A DNA stretch of 64,000 nucleotides from an uncultured Planctomycetia bacterium (lineage in GTDB: Bacteria > Omnitrophota > Gorgyraeia > Duberdicusellales > 4484-171). Shown here in pieces: positions 43,240 to 60,800 of this stretch. Made by a program: the position numbers and the translations under genes. The stretch is from NCBI GenBank assembly GCA_964629655.1, contig CAZVQU010000002.1, positions 76,643 through 140,642 of the forward strand. Direction: 5' to 3'. Position 1 is the stretch's first letter. Each line of letters begins with the position of its first letter. The notes beneath the pieces are model-generated. The model did no database searches and was not told the origin of the DNA. It saw only the letters and a program-made list of their open reading frames with translations.

Positions 43240-43737
43240 ATGAGAATTTTAGTACTTTCTGATACTCACATACCAGTAACCGCACCTAAGTTACCTGATA
43301 TAATAGAAGCGGAAGCCAAAGCCAGTGATTGCTGCCTTCACTGCGGAGATTATATTGTTTACCCGGTCTATGAAACCCTAAGCCAGTGGACTAAAATCTA
43401 CGGTGTTTGCGGAAACATGGATGGAGAAGTCATCAAAACAAAACTACCTGAAAAGCAAATCCTGAAATTTGAGGGAATTACCTTAGCCCTTACTCACGGC
43501 GGAGGACATCCCAAGAAAATACTCGAACATGTAAATAAAGAATTTGTTTGTGAGGCTAAAGATATTGACATTTTTGTCTTTGGCCACTCCCACACACCTC
43601 TTAATGAAGAAATTGGTCAAAAGATTTACTTTAATCCTGGCTCACCCACAGATACAATGTTTACTCCTTACCGTTCTTATGGTATCCTAGAAATAAGCGG
43701 TAAAGAGATTAAAAGGAGGATCGTAAAAATTGGATAG
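43240..43737 (+). CDS. Metallophosphoesterase (YfcE/MJ0936 family)
   Basis: ILVLSDTH, GNMD and GHSHTP motifs. Confidence 0.8.
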   Translation: MRILVLSDTHIPVTAPKLPDIIEAEAKASDCCLHCGDYIVYPVYETLSQWTKIYGVCGNMDGEVIKTKLPEKQILKFEGITLALTHGGGHPKKILEHVNKEFVCEAKDIDIFVFGHSHTPLNEEIGQKIYFNPGSPTDTMFTPYRSYGILEISGKEIKRRIVKIG

Positions 43738-44203
43738 ACTTTGGGCTCCCTGGAGAATAAAGTATGTCAGTAGAAAAAAACAGAGGGGCTGCGTATTCTG
43801 TAAGGCTCTTAAAGAAAGGAAAGACAAAAAAAATTTTATTGTTCTACGTTCTAAGCATTGCTTTGCAATTTTAAACACTTACCCTTACAACAACGGCCAT
43901 GTGATGATCGTTCCTAAAAGGCATGTTAAGTCATTAGAAGCTCTGACGGCTGCTGAATTACTAGACATGAACAAAGTTCTTATTAAAATTAAATCTACAT
44001 TAAAAATAATCCTTAATCCCGGAGGTTTTAATATTGGCATGAACGTCGGTAAGGTTGCCGGAGCCGGAATCGCTAACCACATCCATACTCATATTGTTCC
44101 CCGTTGGCTAGGGGATATTAATTGTATGCCGATTATCGCTAATACCAAGGTAGTCTCGCAGAGCTTGGAAGAATTATATATAAAGCTAAAGAAAAATCTT
44201 TAA
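43730..44203 (+). CDS. HIT-family hydrolase
   Basis: Histidine triad HIHTHIV. Confidence 0.8.
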   Translation: MDRLWAPWRIKYVSRKKQRGCVFCKALKERKDKKNFIVLRSKHCFAILNTYPYNNGHVMIVPKRHVKSLEALTAAELLDMNKVLIKIKSTLKIILNPGGFNIGMNVGKVAGAGIANHIHTHIVPRWLGDINCMPIIANTKVVSQSLEELYIKLKKNL

Positions 44204-44223: not shown

Positions 44224-45261
44224 ATGACTTATAAAACTGTATTTTCATCATTCCATACTATATACCGTCTTGCTACTACCTCTGGTGATCTAACCAGCTT
44301 TACTGTTGGGGCATGCCGGCTATTTCGAAGTCTACTTAAAGCCAGCAAAGTAGTCATGATCTGCACTAACGGTACACCTCAGACCTTTCTTAAAATTCGC
44401 CTAGAGAATAAAAAACAATTTGTAAAAAAAGGCGGTAAATCTATTCTTACTCGTATCGAAAAAGAAATCCTCAAGCAAGAGAAGGAGATGTCTTTTGGCC
44501 GCAGGCTTATCTACCCGTTTATCTTTAACGAGACTTTGGGTGCAATTTACGTAAAGAGAGACTCATCCCTAAAACTATACAACGAAGCTGAAAGAATGTG
44601 GTTTTCATCCCTTTGCGAGGAGATAAGCGTTGGTTTGAAGGTTATAAATCTCTACCGGGAACAACAAAAACTAATGCTAAACTATGTGAATTCTCTAACT
44701 AAATTCTTAAACCAATACGTGCCAACATCCTATCTACATACAAAGACTATGCTCCGATTGATTAAAGCTACCGGTAAAGCCATGCGTTTGTCCGAAATTG
44801 AAACTAAAGCTCTGATAAATGCCTCACTTCTCCATGATGCCGGGAAAATGCAGGTTCCTTCCAAGCTCCTCAAAAAGCAAAAACCCCTTACTGATGAAGA
44901 ATTTAAATTAATGGCCAAGCACCCTCGAAAAGGGGTAGAGTTGATTAAAAACCTAGAGATATTAAAGCCCGCTATCCCAATAATCCTACATCACCACGAG
45001 AGATATGATGGCCAGGGCTACCCTTCAAAGCTTAAGAAGGATAAAATACCCTTGGGTTCACGTATTCTCTCAGTTTTAGACTCTTTTGATGCCATGTTTT
45101 TCGGCCGTCCATATCGAAAAGGAAGATCTTTGGAAGAAATCGAGCAAGAGCTTAAAAAGCAAAAAAGTAGGCAATTTGACCCTAAGATTGTTGATGTTTT
45201 CTTAAAGATTTTAAAGAGAAAAACTATCCGGGAACACCTAAAAATATCCCCCAAAAAGTAG
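44224..45261 (+). CDS. HD-GYP domain protein (c-di-GMP phosphodiesterase family) with N-terminal GAF-like region
   Basis: LLHDAGK ... HHERYDGQGYP. Confidence 0.75.
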   Translation: MTYKTVFSSFHTIYRLATTSGDLTSFTVGACRLFRSLLKASKVVMICTNGTPQTFLKIRLENKKQFVKKGGKSILTRIEKEILKQEKEMSFGRRLIYPFIFNETLGAIYVKRDSSLKLYNEAERMWFSSLCEEISVGLKVINLYREQQKLMLNYVNSLTKFLNQYVPTSYLHTKTMLRLIKATGKAMRLSEIETKALINASLLHDAGKMQVPSKLLKKQKPLTDEEFKLMAKHPRKGVELIKNLEILKPAIPIILHHHERYDGQGYPSKLKKDKIPLGSRILSVLDSFDAMFFGRPYRKGRSLEEIEQELKKQKSRQFDPKIVDVFLKILKRKTIREHLKISPKK

Positions 45262-45314
45262 GAATTTCACCCCAGAGCGCTTGATTTTTTCCAAAAATCC
45301 TTTATAATGTATCT

Positions 45315-45839
45315 ATGCGTGGGAAACAGCTTTATCTTTTTAGTCACCGCAAAGACAATGAAAAGGGTAGTTCTCGGCCAAAGGTCATCCTGCCTCTAGA
45401 CACCCTTATTTTACTGGGTGTAATTGCAATTCTCCTCTTTACCATGTCCTTTTCCATGGGGGTAGAAAAGGGTAAAAATATTGCCCGTGGAGTAATGGTA
45501 GCAAAGGAAAAGATAGCGATTCCGGCCCAAAACCAGGATACCGTAACAACTAAAAATACAAACATAAATAAGGATAGTGAAGATAATCAACGAACAAAAG
45601 AGGAAGTTGGAGAAGAACGAGAACGCTATCACGTGCAAGTAGCTAGTTTTAAAAAAGAAAATTCAGCCAGCAAAGAGATTGAAAGGCTGGAAAATAACGG
45701 CTATCCGGTAGTTGTAACGAAAAAAGGAGATTACGTAGTAATCTACGTTGGCGGCTTTGAAAATGAGAGAGAAGCCAGAAGCAATTTTAAAGACCTGAGG
45801 AAAAGGTACAAAGATTGCATCTTTAAAAATAGTTTGTAA
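45315..45839 (+). CDS. SPOR-domain membrane protein
   Basis: TM helix and a C-terminal SPOR domain (YHVQVASFKKENSASKEIERLE). Confidence 0.65.
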   Translation: MRGKQLYLFSHRKDNEKGSSRPKVILPLDTLILLGVIAILLFTMSFSMGVEKGKNIARGVMVAKEKIAIPAQNQDTVTTKNTNINKDSEDNQRTKEEVGEERERYHVQVASFKKENSASKEIERLENNGYPVVVTKKGDYVVIYVGGFENEREARSNFKDLRKRYKDCIFKNSL

Positions 45840-45849
45840 GGAGGTTACA

Positions 45850-46125
45850 ATGGGTTTGCATCCATCATTGAAGGGGGCAGAAAAATTAGGCGGCTCCCGC
45901 TCAGTAATGAAACGTACTGAAAGAATAAAGTGGTTAAAAGAGAAAGGAAAGTGGACTGAAGATGACCCGGTATTGGGTCTACCAAAGATAAAAATCGTAA
46001 AGCTAAAAGCATTGAAGAAAGAAAAGAAAGAGGCTGAAGAGGGCGCTGTTGAGGGAGAAGGACAAGTTCAGGACAAAGAACAAACACAGAAGCCCGTAGA
46101 AGACAAGAAAAAACCTACTAAATAA
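45850..46125 (+). CDS. Small Lys/Glu-rich hypothetical protein
   Basis: Strong AAGGAGG RBS. 91 aa. Confidence 0.45.
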   Translation: MGLHPSLKGAEKLGGSRSVMKRTERIKWLKEKGKWTEDDPVLGLPKIKIVKLKALKKEKKEAEEGAVEGEGQVQDKEQTQKPVEDKKKPTK

Positions 46126-46160
46126 AAGATAGAACCTCGATTTGATCAAGGCAAATAATA

Positions 46161-46772
46161 ATGCCAATTCTTATTCTCATTCTTCTTGTATCGATAACTT
46201 TCCATGAATATGCCCACGGATTGATGGCCTCTAAGTTAGGGGATCCCACTCCTAAGCAATCGGGCCGGCTAAGTTTAAACCCCCTTGTCCATATTGACCT
46301 CTTTGGAACGATTATCCTTCCGATTGTTCTTTTGATTCTATCAACCCGGCTTATCGGCCAGCCTTTTGCTATCGGATACGCTAAGCCGGTTCCAATAAAT
46401 CCTTATCATTTCAAAAATCCAAAGAAAGATACTGCTTTAGTAGGGCTAGCCGGACCATTAATGAACATTTTAATCGCCGTAGCCCTATCGCTATTAATTA
46501 GAGTAAGATTTCCTCTATTTATTGAAGCGATCGTCTTGGGAATAATGATAAATCTAATCTTGGCAATATTTAATCTTACTCCAATACCGCCTTTAGACGG
46601 CTCTAAGCTATTACTTCCTTTTCTACCTAAAAAAACTGCTCGTAATTACCTTAAGCTCGAGCCTTATGGCTTTTTTATTATAGCCCTGCTTCTTATGAGT
46701 GGTTTCTTTAAATGGTTTATCTTCCCCTTAGTGACTCTAATATTAGTTAATCTCTTGGGAATAAGTATATAG
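46161..46772 (+). CDS. Site-2 protease family (M50) zinc metalloprotease
   Basis: HEYAHG HExxH motif in TM1. ~6 TM helices. Confidence 0.7.
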   Translation: MPILILILLVSITFHEYAHGLMASKLGDPTPKQSGRLSLNPLVHIDLFGTIILPIVLLILSTRLIGQPFAIGYAKPVPINPYHFKNPKKDTALVGLAGPLMNILIAVALSLLIRVRFPLFIEAIVLGIMINLILAIFNLTPIPPLDGSKLLLPFLPKKTARNYLKLEPYGFFIIALLLMSGFFKWFIFPLVTLILVNLLGISI

Positions 46773-46782
46773 AGGGAAAAAA

Positions 46783-47868
46783 GTGAAAACGATAAGTGTT
46801 AAATTAAAAAAGAATCCTTACAAAATCCGCATTGGCTATAGACTTCTGAAAGAGGTTCCCAAATACATAAAAAGCCTTAAACTTGGCAATTTCGGCTTAG
46901 TTATTACCTCTCCGAAGATCCTCTCGCTCCACGGAAAGGGGATCAGAAGGGCTTTTGGTAGCAAAAACTATAAGATAACTACGGTTATCGACGGCGAAAA
47001 GGCTAAATCCAAAAAGTGGCTAAACAAAGTAATAAGCGAGGTAGTAAAGGCCGACGCCTTAAACCGAAAAATATTTATTATATGCCTTGGCGGAGGCACT
47101 ATCGGTGATTTAGGGGGTTTTGTAGCCTCGATCTACAAGCGCGGCATACCCTACATCCAGATTCCGACCACACTCCTGGGACAAATCGACTCTAGTATCG
47201 GCGGTAAAACTGCGATTGACCTAAAAGAGGCAAAAAATATCCTCGGCGCCTTTTACCAGCCTAAGGCTGTATTTATTGATCCCGGGTTCTTAAAAACCCT
47301 CTCAGTGAGAGAGATGAGACAAGGTTTAGCTGAAGCGATAAAGTATGGGGTAATAAAAGATAAAGAATTCTTTGATTTTCTCAAAAAAAATCATAAGAAA
47401 ATCTTAAAACTCGACTCAATCTGCATCTTAAAGTTGATTTCAGTCTGCACAGGCATAAAAGCAAAGATAGTAGCTGCAGATGAGCGAGAAAAAAGGGGAT
47501 TGCGGACAATTCTTAACTTTGGACACACTCTTGCTCATGCTTTAGAAAGTTCTCTGCAATATAAGCGGTTATCTCACGGAGAAGCAGTTTCTTTGGGAAT
47601 GCTTTACGCAGCTCACCTTTCAAAAGTTCTCAAAAAATGCTCTGAGGAAGAAGTTAACCAGATAGAGGAAATCCTCAAGCTGTTTTTCCTTCCAATCAAG
47701 GTAAAGTTTAGAGTTCTAACTCTTTATAAGTCATTGACTTATGACAAGAAGTTTGTTTCAGGAAAAATCCGAATGGTAATCTTACGAAAAATCGGAAGAG
47801 TAGAGGTAGTTGAAGGAATTTCTCCCCAAAATATCAAAAGAACCCTTAAACTTTTCGCCTCACGTTGA
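46783..47868 (+). CDS. aroB: 3-dehydroquinate synthase
   Basis: LGGGTIGDLGGFVAS and a metal-binding His cluster. Confidence 0.85.
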   Translation: MKTISVKLKKNPYKIRIGYRLLKEVPKYIKSLKLGNFGLVITSPKILSLHGKGIRRAFGSKNYKITTVIDGEKAKSKKWLNKVISEVVKADALNRKIFIICLGGGTIGDLGGFVASIYKRGIPYIQIPTTLLGQIDSSIGGKTAIDLKEAKNILGAFYQPKAVFIDPGFLKTLSVREMRQGLAEAIKYGVIKDKEFFDFLKKNHKKILKLDSICILKLISVCTGIKAKIVAADEREKRGLRTILNFGHTLAHALESSLQYKRLSHGEAVSLGMLYAAHLSKVLKKCSEEEVNQIEEILKLFFLPIKVKFRVLTLYKSLTYDKKFVSGKIRMVILRKIGRVEVVEGISPQNIKRTLKLFASR

Positions 47869-47929
47869 CAAAGACATATATATATGTTATATTCTAATGT
47901 ACCGTCCGAATGTAAACGTTTTAAAAAAT

Positions 47930-48259
47930 ATGAGTGATAAGAGAAAATTTCCTAGAGTAGATGTTTCGTTTCCGATTGAATACAAGCCACTTCCGGCCCG
48001 AAATTATTTTTACACTGTAAGTAAAGATTTAAGTCTTGGCGGAGTAAAGATTGTAAGCAATTATTTTCTGCCTAAAAACGATACCGTGAAGGTAAACGTA
48101 AACCTTATTGACAGCATACTGGGCCTGAAGGCAAAAGTAGCTTGGTGCAACAAGGAAAGGCTATCAGAAAGGTATTCTACCGGACTAGAATTCGTAGAAA
48201 CTACCGAGAGTTCCAAAAAGCGTTTATTCCAATTTCTAAACCGAATATTCAACGTCTAA
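47930..48259 (+). CDS. PilZ-domain protein
   Basis: RKFPRV plus a downstream D/S...G c-di-GMP motif. The ORF track starts earlier, at 47810. Confidence 0.6.
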   Translation: MSDKRKFPRVDVSFPIEYKPLPARNYFYTVSKDLSLGGVKIVSNYFLPKNDTVKVNVNLIDSILGLKAKVAWCNKERLSERYSTGLEFVETTESSKKRLFQFLNRIFNV

Positions 48260-48260
48260 A

Positions 48261-48410
48261 ATGGCAAAAGCAGAAGAAAAAAGAAAAAATTGTCTTAGTT
48301 GCAATAAATCCTTAAGAAGGGTAGATTGGTATTACCGGAACAACGGTTATTACTGCAACAAGTCTTGCTTCAAAACCCACCTGGCAAAAAAAGAATCTGC
48401 GCAAAGTTAA
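48261..48410 (+). CDS. 49-aa C4 zinc-ribbon protein
   Basis: MAKAEEKRKNCLSCNK...YYCNKSCF. Its TAA overlaps the ATG of the next PilZ gene (TAATG). Not in the ORF track (<60 aa). Confidence 0.45.
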   Translation: MAKAEEKRKNCLSCNKSLRRVDWYYRNNGYYCNKSCFKTHLAKKESAQS

Positions 48411-48763
48411 TGAAAGAAAAACGACAATGCCCCCGCGTAGAGAAAATCCTGCCAATAAAGTTATCGGTCAGTGATTTTGACGTCCTTACTGAAACCAATA
48501 ATATTAGCGCCAGCGGAGCCTATTTTCCAGTAGACAAACCGCTAGAGTTAATGAGCAAGCTAAATGTTGTTCTTCTGATTCCGCTTAAGAGGAATCGGGG
48601 TAAGACCATAGAGAAAATTAACTGTGTCGGAGTTATTGTCCGTTGTGAAATCTCTGCAGAGAGCACAAAGCACCCTTATCGGGCAGCAATGTATTTTAGC
48701 GATTTAAGTGACCGTGACCGAAAAATACTTCGTACCTTTGTAAATCCTTTTCTAAAATCGTAA
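48410..48763 (+). CDS. PilZ-domain protein
   Basis: RQCPRV and ISASGAYF. Confidence 0.6.
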   Translation: MKEKRQCPRVEKILPIKLSVSDFDVLTETNNISASGAYFPVDKPLELMSKLNVVLLIPLKRNRGKTIEKINCVGVIVRCEISAESTKHPYRAAMYFSDLSDRDRKILRTFVNPFLKS

Positions 48764-48779
48764 TTAAGTCTTCTTTAAC

Positions 48780-49310
48780 ATGCTCGAGATCCACTTGCCC
48801 TTGCCGGTAAAATTTATCTGCGGTTTTATCTACACGACTGAAAAAGTCTATCAGGAAGCAAAAAAAGTTTTGGAAAGAAAATTCGGTTCGATAGACTTTG
48901 AGAGTGAGAGGATTGACTTTGATTTTACTGAATACTACTATCCGGAAATGGGTAAGCCTCTTAGCAGGCGTTTTATATCTTTTAAGAAACTGCGCAAGCC
49001 TGAGCAATTTGTAAAGATTAAACTTGATTGTATAAAACTGGAGAAAAAGTTTGCCCTTGGCTTGCACCGACAAATAAATATTGACCCCGGCTATATTAAC
49101 GAAGCTAAGCTGATTTTAACTACTACTAAAGACTTTGCTCATCGGATCTATCTTGGTAAAGGAATTTATGCTGAGCTGACTCTTTCTTATGTGAACGATC
49201 ACTTCTCTGAAGTACCGACAACCTTCCCCGATTACCGGACCTCACAATACAAAGAGATCTTCTCCCAGATCAGAAGAATATACCGTCAACAGATACAGGT
49301 AAATAAGTAA
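48780..49310 (+). CDS. DUF4416-like hypothetical protein
   Basis: PVKFICGFIY N-terminus. Confidence 0.35.
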   Translation: MLEIHLPLPVKFICGFIYTTEKVYQEAKKVLERKFGSIDFESERIDFDFTEYYYPEMGKPLSRRFISFKKLRKPEQFVKIKLDCIKLEKKFALGLHRQINIDPGYINEAKLILTTTKDFAHRIYLGKGIYAELTLSYVNDHFSEVPTTFPDYRTSQYKEIFSQIRRIYRQQIQVNK

Positions 49311-49343: not shown

Positions 49344-49727
49344 TTATATATGTAGCAGATTTTTTATAGCTGTTATCACTTCTTGGCTCTGGACAGTTTT
49401 AGCAATAAAATTGTTACCGCCTATCTCGCTAACTACCTTGGCTCCCAGCTCTTTTCGGGTAACTACTGCCGTAAGAAATATTATCGGGATTCTTCTGGTA
49501 TCAGGGTCGTTTAAGAGAATACTGGCCACATCTGTACCTGAAACCCCTGGCAAAACAATGTCGAGAAGAATCAAATCCGGGCGTTCTTTCCTGGCTAGGT
49601 CAATTCCCTCCTGGCCATCGTGAGCAACTATTACCGAGAATTCACCACTAGCTTCAAGATTGCGCGCCATGAAATAACAATAATCTTCTTCATCGTCAAC
49701 CAACAAGATTCGTCTCTTCTCAGGCAT
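49344..49727 (-). CDS. Stand-alone response regulator receiver (CheY-like)
   Basis: ILLVDDE, phospho-Asp region LILLDIVLPG, and a conserved T/K. Confidence 0.8.
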   Translation of the reverse strand: MPEKRRILLVDDEEDYCYFMARNLEASGEFSVIVAHDGQEGIDLARKERPDLILLDIVLPGVSGTDVASILLNDPDTRRIPIIFLTAVVTRKELGAKVVSEIGGNNFIAKTVQSQEVITAIKNLLHI

Positions 49728-49811: not shown

Positions 49812-50750
49812 ATGGTTACAGATTTAGAAAAAAAAGCTGCATTAGCTAAAACCTCTGCCAACTGCTTAGAAAAACGCTTAGAAAGTTGTGATATCTGCCC
49901 TCGAGACTGCAAGGTAAACCGTCTAAGGGGTGAAACAGGTTACTGCGGAACTGATCAAGACATGGTGGTTTACAGCGCTTTCTTACACCACGGAGAAGAA
50001 CCGGGAATAAGCGGACAAAAAGGGAGCGGTACTATATTCTTCTCTGGCTGTAACCTCAAGTGCATCTATTGCCAGAATTATAAATTCTCCCACACTGTAG
50101 TGGGCAAGAAAGTTTCGGTAATTGATTTAGCTAAAATTATGCTCGACCTTCAGGAGCAGGGAGCTCACAATATAAATCTAGTAACTCCTACGCATTTCCT
50201 GCCACAAATTTTAAATACCTTGGCTTTAGCATTTAAAGGCGGCCTTAGTATTCCGATTGTCTATAATACTTCGGGGTATGAGAAAGAAGAGACCGTTAAG
50301 TATCTTGAAGGAATAGTAGACATCTACTTAACCGACCTTAAATATATGGAGATTTCACTGGCAAAACTATATTCTAAGGCCTCAGGATACCCTGAATTTG
50401 CCTCTAGAAGCCTCCTGGAAATGGATAGGCAGGTTGAACCCCTAACCAGCAAAAATTTGCTAAAAAAAGGGGTAGTTATCAGACACCTTGTGCTTCCTAA
50501 TCACGTCAATCAATCAAAAAAACTGCTATCCTGGATAAAAGGAAATACTCCTAGGGTTTTAGTAAGCGTGATGTTTCAATACCAACCTTACTATAGAGCT
50601 TATCTTCATCCTCAGATAAACCGGTCAATAAATTACCAGGAATACCTTGAAATTAAGAATTTTGTCGAGGAATTGAGGCTTGGAGGCTGGGTCCAAGAAC
50701 ATACCCCCGAAGAGGATTTAGCCGGACCTTATTTTGAACCAAATATCTAA
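49812..50750 (+). CDS. AmmeMemoRadiSam-system radical SAM enzyme (AmrS-like)
   Basis: CNLKCIYCQN CxxxCxxC. N-terminal CDICPRDC...GETGYCG. Confidence 0.7.
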   Translation: MVTDLEKKAALAKTSANCLEKRLESCDICPRDCKVNRLRGETGYCGTDQDMVVYSAFLHHGEEPGISGQKGSGTIFFSGCNLKCIYCQNYKFSHTVVGKKVSVIDLAKIMLDLQEQGAHNINLVTPTHFLPQILNTLALAFKGGLSIPIVYNTSGYEKEETVKYLEGIVDIYLTDLKYMEISLAKLYSKASGYPEFASRSLLEMDRQVEPLTSKNLLKKGVVIRHLVLPNHVNQSKKLLSWIKGNTPRVLVSVMFQYQPYYRAYLHPQINRSINYQEYLEIKNFVEELRLGGWVQEHTPEEDLAGPYFEPNI

Positions 50751-50817
50751 AATTGTGGTATAATTGCTTACCTGTTAAGTGACTAGTGACTACTTAGATA
50801 AAAGGAGGAAGGCTGAG

Positions 50818-51513
50818 ATGAAAAAAGCAATAGTTTTCTTGGTTATAAGTTGTTTTTACCTTTCAATAACTGTTTTAGCCGAAAGTGATCTCTCACGGGT
50901 AGGTAAAAAATTTAGATCTTTTACTAAAGAATCTCGAAAAGGGATTGCCGAACTTTCTGAGGAAGAGTTCGAAGCCTTGGTAGATGATGTTATCGAGATA
51001 TCCCTGAAAGAGTTTGAGAGAGACTTTGGTGATCTTCCTAATTACACGCCGGTCTCCCAAGAAGAAAAAGAAGCCGGAAAACAAGAAGTCATGAAGCTGA
51101 TCAGGGCCAATCCTGAACTGTTAGAAGAATCAAGAGATGAAACCGGAGAAATTACTGCTAAAAATTTAGTTGAAACACTGAATAATTATAGCAAAAAAGA
51201 AACAAAGGAGACCTATCTTATCGTAGCCCAGGGCAATATAGCAATGCTAGAAACATCTTTAGCTTTATACGAACTTGATAATGGGTTTTACCCTAGCACT
51301 AGCCAGGGCTTACTGGCATTACTTGAGAAACCAACATCAGGACCAACACCAACCGCCTGGAACGGTCCTTATCTGCCTAAGATGATTGAAGACCCTTGGG
51401 AAAATTCTTATCACTATGTTTACCCCGGTATTCACAATAAAGACAAATTTGATATCTCATCCTACGGTCCGGATGAGGTTGAAAGCGACGACGACATTAA
51501 CAACTGGGACTAA
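50818..51513 (+). CDS. Sec-signal-peptide protein with C-terminal GspG (T2SS major pseudopilin) globular domain
   Basis: LYELDNGFYPSTSQGL ... DPWENSYHYVYPG ... SYGPDEVESDDDINNW matches the GspG C-domain. There is no GFTLIE prepilin motif. AAGGAGG RBS. Confidence 0.55.
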   Translation: MKKAIVFLVISCFYLSITVLAESDLSRVGKKFRSFTKESRKGIAELSEEEFEALVDDVIEISLKEFERDFGDLPNYTPVSQEEKEAGKQEVMKLIRANPELLEESRDETGEITAKNLVETLNNYSKKETKETYLIVAQGNIAMLETSLALYELDNGFYPSTSQGLLALLEKPTSGPTPTAWNGPYLPKMIEDPWENSYHYVYPGIHNKDKFDISSYGPDEVESDDDINNWD

Positions 51514-53813: not shown

Positions 53814-54278
53814 GTGGACATGAAAGATATAAAAGAAATTCTAAAAGAACACTCATTTTTTAAAGACTTAAAGCCAGAGTATCTTGATTTTATCGCTGGC
53901 TGCGCGTCTAATGTAGTATTCAGAGAGGGCGAGACGATTCTTAAGGAAGGCGAGGATGCGAATAAATTTTGTCTTATCCGGCATGGTAAGATAGCAATCG
54001 ATATCCCCTTAAGTAAAGAGAGAGGAATTACCATCCAAACAATTAAAGACGGTGATATCCTTGGTTGGTCCTGGCTTATACCTCCGCATAATTACCGTTT
54101 CAATGCCAGAGCAGTTACAGAAACCCGGGCAATCTCCTTTGACGGAAAGTGCTTAAGAGAAAAATGTGAGAGTAAGCCTGACCTAGGCTACGAACTGCTT
54201 AAAAGATTGGCTGCGGTTTTTATTAGCCGGCTTGAGATGACCCGGATGCAAGTTATTAATAGCCAAGGCAGAAAATAA
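53814..54278 (+). CDS. Cyclic-nucleotide-binding-domain protein (no DNA-binding domain)
   Basis: cNMP-binding pattern GETILKEGEDANKFCLIRHGKIAI...TETRAISF. Confidence 0.65.
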   Translation: MDMKDIKEILKEHSFFKDLKPEYLDFIAGCASNVVFREGETILKEGEDANKFCLIRHGKIAIDIPLSKERGITIQTIKDGDILGWSWLIPPHNYRFNARAVTETRAISFDGKCLREKCESKPDLGYELLKRLAAVFISRLEMTRMQVINSQGRK

Positions 54279-54760: not shown

Positions 54761-55342
54761 ATGGAGTTATTTAGCAAATTTAAAAGCCTGTTTGTCCCCA
54801 GGGAAGAGGAGAAATCCCGTCGCAAAACCACAAAAAAGATTAAAAGAAAGACCACGAGAACTAAGAAAAAACTTAAAAAGAAACCAAAAGTTAAGGTCAA
54901 AAAGAAGGTTTTAAAGAAGAAGAAAAAAATATTAAAAAAGAGAAAAAAAGTAGTAAAAAAGAGAAAGAAGATAAAGAAGGTCAAGAAAAAGGTAGTAAAA
55001 AAGAAAGTAAGCCTCAAGGTTAAGAAAAAACCTTCCAATAAGCGCCAGCCCACAAAGATCAAAAAGAAATCAGCTGCAGCTTTAAAGAAGTTGTTTAAGG
55101 AAGAGGAAATCGGTATCATAACCCATTATTTTGGAAAAATATCCGTAGGAATCATTAAGCTTAGATCCACCCTTAGGGTCGGGGAAAGAATCCACATAAA
55201 GGGCGCACACGATAATTTTACCCAGACAGTTAAATCAATGCAAATTAACCATAACGATGTTCCAATGGCCGGAAGAGGCGATGAAATCGGCATCAAAGTC
55301 CCTGCCCCGGTACATGAAAACGATCGGGTGTATAGAGTATAA
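54761..55342 (+). CDS. Histone-H1-like poly-Lys domain fused to a beta-barrel domain resembling translation-factor domain 2
   Basis: ~100 residues of K/R-rich low complexity, then IGIITHYFGKISVGIIKL...GERIHIKG...DEIGIKV. Confidence 0.45.
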   Translation: MELFSKFKSLFVPREEEKSRRKTTKKIKRKTTRTKKKLKKKPKVKVKKKVLKKKKKILKKRKKVVKKRKKIKKVKKKVVKKKVSLKVKKKPSNKRQPTKIKKKSAAALKKLFKEEEIGIITHYFGKISVGIIKLRSTLRVGERIHIKGAHDNFTQTVKSMQINHNDVPMAGRGDEIGIKVPAPVHENDRVYRV

Positions 55343-60410: not shown

Positions 60411-60800
60411 ATGTACACAAAAAAAATCGTAGACAAAAGGGAATATATAAGATTTAACTCCGAAGGTAAAATTAATCTTCAAATTCAAAAGAAAGGACAA
60501 GACCAAACTCCTTCTGATAAGACTTCTACCATAGCTAAAAATTTGAGCATTAAAGGGATTTGTTTTATCTACGATAAGAATTTAACACCCGGCGATATTA
60601 TTAAGTTGGAAATCGTTCTTCTTCCTCAAACGCGGCCTTTGCATTTAGAAGGACAGGTAAAGTGGGTTAACCCCCTAAAGCCAACCGAGAATACAGAAGT
60701 ATTTGAGACCGGGGTAGAGCTTTTTACACTTAAAGAAAATGACGAAAGCCGATTTATTAAATATACATTTGAAAAAGTGATCGGGTGTTTAAGCCAATAA
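60411..60800 (+). CDS. PilZ-like domain protein
   Basis: REYIRF and LSIKGICFIY fit a PilZ-like pattern. Confidence 0.4.
   Translation: MYTKKIVDKREYIRFNSEGKINLQIQKKGQDQTPSDKTSTIAKNLSIKGICFIYDKNLTPGDIIKLEIVLLPQTRPLHLEGQVKWVNPLKPTENTEVFETGVELFTLKENDESRFIKYTFEKVIGCLSQ

Follow-up and report, generated by a model that had tools for sequence, protein, structure and literature searches.

Single-domain PilZ proteins are the commonest receptors of c-di-GMP, and most of them have no known partner. They are described as trans-acting adaptors (PMC11250160, PMC10912698) and are presumed to bind another protein, as in the pairs formed by MapZ and CheR1, by a Xanthomonas PilZ protein and a glutamine methyltransferase, by a PilZ protein and HinK, and by CdbS and CdbA (PMC11250160, PMC10912698, PMC10313047, bioRxiv 10.1101/814665). 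In the last of these pairs the Myxococcus PilZ protein CdbS works with a nucleoid protein, CdbA (PMC10313047), and for PlzA a c-di-GMP-dependent binding of DNA and RNA has been described (PMC9915621). Omnitrophota have been reported to contain GGDEF domains, housed in giant proteins, as well as small pilZ genes (bioRxiv 10.1101/2023.11.21.568195).

The locus analysed here differs from these adaptor systems in that the gene of the candidate partner lies between members of two distinct PilZ orthologue groups, within what appears to be one translationally coupled operon, and in that this candidate is an uncharacterised, predicted treble-clef zinc finger. It was found in a stretch of 64,000 nucleotides, called the window in the following, in the genome of an Omnitrophota bacterium related to Candidatus Susulua. 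The features to which we refer are these:

44224..45261, plus strand: HD-GYP phosphodiesterase-family protein, 345 aa (Pfam HD_5, 1.6e-36; motif HHERYDGQGYP)
47865..47893, plus strand: sigma-70-like promoter between aroB and PilZ1 (TTGACA-17 nt-TATATT, extended TG)
47930..48259, plus strand: PilZ1, single-domain PilZ protein, 109 aa (Pfam PilZ, 5.4e-14; RKFPR and DLSLGG)
48261..48410, plus strand: ZnR, predicted basic treble-clef zinc-finger protein, 49 aa, of an uncurated family
48410..48763, plus strand: PilZ2, single-domain PilZ protein, 117 aa (Pfam PilZ, 9.8e-10; RQCPR and NISASG)
48780..49310, plus strand: DUF4416 protein, 176 aa (1.7e-60), which closes the module in this genome
49344..49727, minus strand: stand-alone receiver-domain gene, convergent with the module (Pfam Response_reg, 1.2e-19)
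49812..50750, plus strand: radical SAM activase-like gene (sub-threshold NCBIfam matches to activases)
60411..60800, plus strand: PilZ3, a third single-domain PilZ protein, outside the module (Pfam PilZ, 1.2e-10; REYIR and NLSIKG)

Gene order and spacing mark PilZ1, ZnR, PilZ2 and DUF4416 as a four-gene operon, situated just 3' of aroB and provided with its own conserved promoter. The promoter matches 11 of 12 consensus positions, and an equivalent site (TTGAC[AT]-17-TATAxT, at least 10/12) is present in the aroB-PilZ1 spacer of 39 out of 40 loci, despite saturated synonymous sites. A single nucleotide separates the PilZ1 stop codon from the ATG of ZnR, and the final A of the ZnR stop codon (TAA, 48408-48410) is shared with the ATG of PilZ2 (48410-48412), which results in a 1-base overlap, TAATG. 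The first-pass annotation had read this overlap as a sign of translational coupling, with which the tight gene junctions agree. Because the three genes lie end to end, PilZ1, ZnR and PilZ2 are probably made together. An Rfam search of the window returned two tRNAs only, with neither a GEMM (c-di-GMP) riboswitch nor any other Rfam element.

All three PilZ proteins score above the gathering cut-off of PF07238 (22.5 bits), with 52.8 bits for PilZ1, 39.1 bits for PilZ2 and 42 bits for PilZ3, so that the first-pass assignment of the pair and of the additional gene at 60411 was borne out. Each of them also contains both motifs by which a canonical c-di-GMP-binding PilZ domain is defined, namely RxxxR followed by [D/N]hSxxG (bioRxiv 10.1101/814665). 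With their binding motifs intact, PilZ1 and PilZ2 are predicted c-di-GMP receptors; in the PDB, a profile built from the PilZ1 orthologues finds the PilZ domains of YpfA/MotI and VCA0042. The open reading frame of PilZ1 was listed as 47810-48259, but its true start is probably the ATG at 47930, because of the position of the promoter and the orthologue consensus MxERRKxPR. The short start of PilZ2 (ATG 48410) is likewise backed by an orthologue consensus, xMxERRKxPR, and an extension to 145 aa from a TTG start is not conserved in relatives. The following gene, which had also been recognised from the beginning, belongs to DUF4416 (PF14385), with 204.1 bits against a cut-off of 27 and an alignment over profile positions 2-162 of 162.

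The protein encoded upstream of the two PilZ genes scores 126 bits against HD_5 (cut-off 27.2), carries the signature HHExxDGxGYP at 44992-45024 and has a sub-threshold NCBIfam match to a response-regulator c-di-GMP phosphodiesterase family. By these features it is a canonical HD-GYP protein, as had been noticed from its motif, and c-di-GMP hydrolysis is predicted. The first-pass annotation had placed it in one c-di-GMP neighbourhood with the PilZ, zinc-finger and DUF4416 genes. The grouping of the latter three stands, but the HD-GYP gene does not belong to the same unit, as five genes and the conserved promoter lie between it and PilZ1. Of 84 loci, 23 have an HD-GYP gene no more than 4 kb away from ZnR, with synteny mainly in close relatives. 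The gene is loosely linked and forms a separate transcription unit outside the operon. In distant lineages (L062), an unrelated stand-alone HD-GYP gene adjoins a PilZ pair. In agreement with the earlier reading, no GGDEF or EAL gene was detected in the six frames of the window by GG[DE]EF, DxDxFK, DDFGTGYSS or looser signatures, and a GGDEF motif scan of 615 kb of related loci found no diguanylate cyclase.

The open reading frame between the PilZ genes, 48261-48410, has four cysteines in the arrangement C11-x2-C14-x17-C32-x3-C36, as expected from its initial description as an unannotated C4 protein of 49 aa. Automatic annotation of near-identical contigs gives a 145-aa PilZ2 that overlaps ZnR, and no small gene, and the 49 codons could be taken for a chance open reading frame, a regulatory upstream open reading frame or the front of a frameshifted or longer PilZ2. 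This explanation is refuted by the conservation data and strikes us as scarcely tenable. Nine database clusters match ZnR at 73-89% identity, the family profile matches at least 157 clusters (clustering at 50% identity), and among 31 relatives the core has a pN of 0.01-0.2 against a pS of at least 0.5, which is saturated; these values identify the open reading frame as a real gene under strong purifying selection on its protein sequence. In addition, the predicted structure is a confident model, and the consensus of the PilZ2 orthologues begins with MxERRK. A gap of 5-12 nt lies between ZnR and PilZ2 in many relatives, and the PilZ2 extension is absent there. A frameshift or fusion of ZnR and PilZ2 is ruled out by the short intergenic gap together with the unconserved extension, and no ZnR-PilZ fusion occurred among 29 proteins from a word-index profile search. 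Gene callers missed ZnR because the start of PilZ2 was over-extended.

The core of the ZnR family follows the motif NCxxCNK...WYYRNGxYYCxKxCW, and the strongest conservation is seen in the aromatic/basic hairpin, beyond the metal ligands alone. Its members are free-standing bacterial proteins (PVC group) of 44-230 aa with K/E/A/P-rich tails and a median core charge of +7.8. No Pfam or NCBIfam model of the family was found, and no member reaches a Pfam gathering score. Sub-threshold matches were obtained to zf-FLZ (11 of 72 cores, best 3e-4), zf-FCS (3 of 72) and prokaryotic metallothionein (5 of 72), while ZnR of the window matches only VATC (0.003) and LIM (0.018). YacG (PF03884) was not matched at E <=0.01 by any of the 72 cores and appeared in a PDB sequence search with E 1.6-1.8; eL24/Rlp24 was not matched at the level of sequence profiles. 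On profile scores, membership of ZnR in the YacG, eL24, LIM or metallothionein families was ruled out. The PDB matches of the family profile were mainly spurious, aligning the EKPxNCxxCNKS stretch with C2H2 linkers, and were discarded.

The top fold matches of the ZnR model are ribosomal eL24/Rlp24 and YacG. The original label "zinc ribbon" is better replaced; the model predicts a basic treble-clef finger, of the class to which FCS/TRASH fingers, eL24 and YacG belong. In comparison to FCS, MYM and TRASH fingers, including eL24, the family has an invariant WYYRNGxYY hairpin of its own and includes cysteine-less variants. YacG, a small zinc-finger inhibitor of DNA gyrase, has a different genomic context and a C-terminal DLGxW-type tail, which is apparently missing from ZnR.

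For modules of the TRASH type, with the pattern C-x2-C...C-x3-C, a role in sensing or trafficking metals such as zinc or copper has been proposed. The four-cysteine pattern and the metallothionein matches mentioned above would suit a ZnR that handles metal, supplying or sensing it for its neighbours, such as the radical SAM enzyme or the metal centre of HD-GYP. However, some family members lack three or four cysteines and have an unchanged genomic context, and cysteine-less members retain the WYYRNG core and the PilZ flanks. The peak of conservation in the hairpin, not only at the metal ligands, and the lack of radical SAM and HD-GYP genes in many loci that retain ZnR and PilZ also argue against such a role, which we consider improbable. 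Because the cysteine-poor members keep their context, the binding of zinc is perhaps dispensable.

How regularly does the finger occur beside PilZ? Adjacency was counted in 72 loci, each representing a species and extending 500 nt or more to either side of ZnR; the sample was found through a 15-sequence alignment and is biased by the pattern WYYRN[GN]xY[YF] toward that motif. A PilZ gene lies within 100 nt of ZnR in 63 of these loci, and on both sides in 43. Each of the 112 neighbours, 60 downstream and 52 upstream, matches PF07238, with RxxxR and [DN]xSxxG in register in 58 and 49 of them, respectively, and in most loci 5-40 nt separate the ZnR stop codon from RxxxR in the PilZ gene that follows. 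Because gene order is inherited, the 38 close loci cannot be counted as independent. The 34 divergent loci have ZnR cores of about 44-68% identity and a different cluster architecture; an adjacent PilZ is kept in 25 of them, and three further divergent members, one of them cysteine-less, are again flanked by PilZ according to independent gene calls. These counts mark the ZnR-PilZ pairing as genuine, widespread and phylum-wide in Omnitrophota, and the same holds for the conservation of the small open reading frame, on which the first-pass reading depended. The pairing had been called unfamiliar; we found no curated family for the finger, and no description of the pairing in the literature on DUF4416, on PilZ with a zinc ribbon, and on Omnitrophota with c-di-GMP or PilZ.

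A directly adjacent PilZ is absent in 9 of the 72 loci. In five of these cases, from high-GC PVC lineages (L048, L051, L063 and L067, as well as L060 outside the 72-locus set), ZnR follows a gene for an EF-Tu-domain-2-like barrel, which in other PVC phyla is small, stands alone and overlaps ZnR by 4 nt. The partnership with PilZ is therefore not obligatory. In L071 and L075, moreover, the nearest PilZ is 2 kb from ZnR. Such loci would fit an independent housekeeping protein of the ribosome, RNA or nucleoid that happens to be encoded among conserved PilZ paralogues. Inherited order and co-expression would then account for the adjacency, with neither a physical nor a regulatory link to c-di-GMP; the nearest folds, eL24/Rlp24 and YacG, the basic core and the K/E/A/P-rich tails point in the same direction. 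On the other hand, the adjacency outlasts rearrangements of other neighbours, and with insertions on either side at least one PilZ is still adjacent in the 25 divergent loci. Junctions that overlap or leave 1 nt are typically seen between genes whose products co-assemble, and chance adjacency would amount to a few per cent, because the PilZ density of the window away from the cluster is about one gene per 60 kb. We regard the housekeeping explanation as a serious but rather unlikely one.

Could the finger instead be the protein on which the two PilZ receptors act? Since the PilZ-ZnR-PilZ sandwich recurs across Omnitrophota, ZnR is probably a new partner of c-di-GMP signalling. That it contacts the two single-domain PilZ adaptors as their partner or output is our main reading, to which we assign a probability of roughly 0.5. 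PilZ1 and PilZ2 would act as c-di-GMP-dependent adaptors, like other single-domain PilZ proteins, ZnR would be the partner or output bound by them, and binding of c-di-GMP to PilZ would change the freedom of ZnR to engage its own target. Because of the charge of ZnR and its resemblance to eL24, YacG and FCS fingers, this target would most plausibly be a nucleic acid or a nucleic-acid-handling machine. Charge complementarity was rejected as support for a ZnR-PilZ complex, as all four operon proteins are basic. The nine loci with no PilZ directly beside ZnR, the cysteine-poor members and the failure to find a diguanylate cyclase in the window or in the 615 kb of related loci also count against this reading. 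In a wider and distinctly speculative version, the WYYRNG finger would be the output subunit in a c-di-GMP switch of three proteins, shared by the whole phylum Omnitrophota, in which two PilZ receptors clamp or release a finger acting on the ribosome or nucleoid; more broadly, it would be a dedicated partner of small β-barrels across the PVC group, of PilZ in Omnitrophota and of the EF-Tu-domain-2-like barrel in Auribacterota and related lineages. If true, such a switch would constitute a new class of second-messenger effector.

For single-domain PilZ receptors, genome context itself thus nominates a candidate partner. Throughout an uncultured phylum whose members are very small and possibly predatory or host-dependent, an uncurated and often unannotated zinc-finger family is kept beside PilZ genes. 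It provides a new protein family to model and brings to light a systematic error of annotation: a PilZ start placed too far upstream conceals a small gene.

In most close relatives the radical SAM gene is located directly 3' of DUF4416, often overlapping it, and Pfam Radical_SAM is recorded for these counterparts. The receiver-domain gene at 49344..49727 is present in only 7 of 84 loci; by this distribution it is a lineage-specific insertion that separates DUF4416 from the radical SAM gene.

The first-pass annotation had placed a zinc-ribbon ORF between two PilZ genes, downstream of an HD-GYP gene and upstream of a DUF4416 gene. The 43-51 kb stretch, in which two single-domain PilZ genes (PilZ1 and PilZ2) flank the 49-aa ORF (ZnR) downstream of AroB, encodes:

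43240-43737 (+), Metallophos_2 phosphoesterase
43730-44203 (+), HIT protein
44224-45261 (+), HD-GYP protein (HD_5 1.6e-36, motif HHERYDGQGYP)
45315-45839 (+), SPOR protein
45850-46125 (+), TIGR04137 "small basic protein" (Chlam_Ver_rRNA; 91 aa, 1.8e-19), between the SPOR and M50 genes
46161-46772 (+), M50 peptidase
46783-47868 (+), AroB
47930-48259 (+), PilZ1
48261-48410 (+), ZnR
48410-48763 (+), PilZ2
48780-49310 (+), DUF4416
49344-49727 (-), receiver-domain gene, convergent
49812-50750 (+), radical SAM gene
50779-51513 (+), GspG-like gene

The HD-GYP assignment upstream of the PilZ pair is borne out by the HD_5 match and the motif, and all three PilZ candidates, including the one at 60411-60800 (+), match the PF07238 profile. 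The TIGR04137 marker is consistent with a window of PVC-group origin. The GspG-type pseudopilin matches TIGR01710 in its C-terminal half and has an unusual, acidic N-terminal region of 145 residues. An Rfam scan of the window returned two tRNAs only and no riboswitch. A stand-alone cyclic-nucleotide-binding domain protein encoded at 53814-54278 (+) gives the window another second-messenger receptor.

Read directly in the DNA, the PilZ1 stop TAA (48257-48259) is followed by one base and the ZnR ATG at 48261, while the final A of the ZnR stop TAA (48408-48410) is also the first base of the PilZ2 ATG (48410-48412); the TAATG overlap described at first pass (48408-48412) is therefore correct. Mechanical ORFs over-extend PilZ1 to a TTG at 47810 and PilZ2 to a TTG at 48326, and the orthologue consensus start MxERRKxPR places the two starts at 47930 and 48410. 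In two near-identical contigs, located via a 99%-identical DUF4416 protein, the gene calls (L084:1896-2849 and L085:314-1267, numbered within each locus) give a 149-aa PilZ1 and a 145-aa PilZ2 from upstream TTG starts, and the small ORF is uncalled. ZnR is unannotated because the over-extended PilZ2 start covers it, and its omission, together with the PilZ over-extension, probably reflects systematic misannotation of this clade.

Judged by its conservation in sequence, the small ORF is a genuine gene, and its family is uncurated. In a word-index search, nine clusters were 73-89% identical to ZnR; all are of 45-59 aa, and one is a hypothetical protein of a Candidatus Omnitrophica MAG. Searching 1.84 billion representative proteins exhaustively with the ZnR profile gave 157 clusters at E ≤0.001, all small proteins (44-230 aa). 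The family core, [KR]PxNCxxC[NGK]Kx[LI][KR][RK]xxWYYRNGx[YF][YF]CxKxC[WF]K, is strongly basic (median charge +7.8) and lies between low-complexity tails (~19% K, 19% A, 19% E and 9% P). In comparisons with 31 relatives, non-synonymous divergence of the core is 0.01-0.2 with synonymous sites at or near saturation, and dN/dS is ~0.02 where the ratio is computable. Profile searches with the window protein and 72 cores found no Pfam or NCBIfam model that covers the family: VATC (0.003) and LIM (0.018) were the only matches of the window protein, and the cores gave only sub-threshold matches (LIM 44, zf-FLZ 11, zf-FCS 3, VATC 3). An AlphaFold2 model built from 30 sequences (mean pLDDT 82.8) predicts a CxxC knuckle, a β hairpin at residues 24-31 containing WYYRNN, and a helix whose start, at residue 34, coincides with the second cysteine pair. 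A few members (P0070, P0112, P0118, P0140, P0159, P0170, P0171, L068:3908-4207 and L088:4001-4249; for example NCAQTNKRIRRKDWYYRNGKYFANKKSFK) no longer have three or four of the zinc-ligand cysteines but retain the WYYRNG hairpin and, in every known context, the PilZ flanks.

The pattern WYYRN[GN]xY[YF] was run against a single genome from each GTDB species and gave 113 confirmed loci. Eighty of these were retained; their ORFs were called and then labelled by iterated HMMs seeded from window proteins. Nearly all are Omnitrophota MAGs, several of them labelled generically or plainly incorrectly. Many loci filed as "uncultured Planctomycetia" likewise resemble Omnitrophota. L009 (JAIWAR010000028.1), labelled "Methanosarcinales archaeon", has the gene order of the Omnitrophota loci and a zinc-finger gene at 84% identity; this contig probably belongs to Omnitrophota and was mis-binned, which would be compatible with an archaeon-associated lifestyle.

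Of the 72 loci whose two flanks each extend for 500 nt or more, 63 have a PilZ gene no more than 100 nt from ZnR on one side or both, and 43 have one on both, so that the pairing noticed at first pass holds; the remainder of the 64-kb window has one PilZ gene. The close group (L004-L040 and L077), arranged (HD-GYP)-SPOR-p91-...-M50-AroB-PilZ-ZnR-PilZ-DUF4416-(REC)-rSAM, has PilZ on both sides in 38 of 38 loci, which share ancestry and are not independent observations. The divergent group (L041-L083; ZnR core ~44-68% identical) has at least one PilZ in 25 of 34 loci and other architectures, namely AroB...ExeA-like ATPase...PilZ-x-PilZ-ZnR-(0-2 kb insertion)-PilZ-(membrane-anchored PilZ)-DUF4416 and PilZ-PilZ-(stand-alone HD-GYP)-...-ZnR-PilZ-DUF4416-...-PilZ. 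The informative point is that ZnR remains beside PilZ while neighbours on either side get replaced. PF07238 matched 60/60 downstream and 52/52 upstream neighbours at E ≤0.001, with both PilZ binding motifs in register in 58/60 and 49/52, respectively, and in most loci the distance between the ZnR stop and the leading arginine of the following PilZ is 5-40 nt. For three further divergent members (P0165, P0060 and the cysteine-less P0171), independently made gene calls that come with precomputed Pfam matches agree on the PilZ context. Both the existence of the ZnR gene and its link to PilZ are firmly supported. In divergent Omnitrophota a PilZ paralogue whose N-terminal hydrophobic segment resembles a membrane anchor lies directly upstream of DUF4416 (L053:4556-5047, L078:5740-6243, L041:6661-7149), and up to five PilZ genes occur within 8 kb.

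Right after aroB, 37 nt 5' of the PilZ1 ATG, is a sigma-70-like site (47865-47893) that reads TTGACA-17-TATATT and has an extended TG. Across the loci with an aroB-PilZ1 junction (L001-L040 and L077), an equivalent promoter (TTGAC[AT]-17-TATAxT, 17-nt spacing) occurs in 39/40 spacers, with synonymous sites saturated, and these Omnitrophota thus apparently use canonical -35/-10 promoters. No terminator-like site was found between the four genes on the + strand, which, with the promoter, defines a predicted transcription unit PilZ1-ZnR-PilZ2-DUF4416. In most relatives the radical SAM gene overlaps DUF4416 and joins the predicted unit; in the window's lineage the convergent receiver-domain gene is inserted after DUF4416.

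The c-di-GMP neighbourhood proposed at first pass stands as a theme, although not as a fixed linkage: the HD-GYP gene lies five genes upstream, outside the unit, and is syntenic in 23/84 loci. In distant lineages another HD-GYP, which stands alone (187 aa, HHERYDGRGYP, in L062), adjoins a PilZ pair; L057 and L079 have similarly labelled matches at the same position. As first reported, the window contains no GGDEF or EAL signature in any frame; no GGDEF motif was found in 615 kb of related loci either. A preprint describes Omnitrophota giant proteins that carry GGDEF domains and are followed by small pilZ genes (bioRxiv 10.1101/2023.11.21.568195).

Single-domain PilZ proteins have been documented as adaptors acting in trans, which in their c-di-GMP-bound form associate with a partner protein (PMC11250160, PMC10912698). 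PilZ proteins tied to nucleic-acid-binding functions include CdbS with CdbA (PMC10313047) and PlzA (PMC9915621). We hypothesize that ZnR is most likely a partner of, or an output for, at least one of the two flanking adaptors (a probability of roughly one half), with both the interaction and the target being hypothetical; the end-to-end gene packing, the persistence of ZnR beside PilZ through rearrangements and the fold, a basic treble clef, bear on this. ZnR would then be an undescribed candidate partner family within known PilZ adaptor signalling; the initial observation is confirmed and its interpretation supported.

The main rival, which we regard as plausible though less likely, is that ZnR is an independent ribosome-, RNA- or nucleoid-associated protein that merely resides in a conserved operon. 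It draws on five high-GC loci (L048:999-1597, L051:1392-2434, L060:207-721, L063:3612-4147, L067:3396-4147) in which ZnR is away from PilZ and follows a gene for a small stand-alone EF-Tu-domain-2-like β-barrel (PF03144). All are PVC-group MAGs, of Auribacterota or labelled Planctomycetota or Chlamydiota; L067 is Candidatus Tritonobacter (phylum Auribacterota), with the barrel at 9.4e-9. In L048 and L067, where coordinates were checked, the overlap between barrel gene and ZnR is 4 nt. With either neighbour ZnR is consistently coupled to a small β-barrel, not always PilZ, which fits a general barrel-partner role and a PilZ-independent core function equally well.

The window itself encodes a homologue of this barrel at 54761-55342 (+) (phmmer 1.7e-17; no Pfam match at 0.001), 6 kb from the ZnR gene and fused to a lysine-rich, histone H1-like N-terminal tail of ~115 residues.
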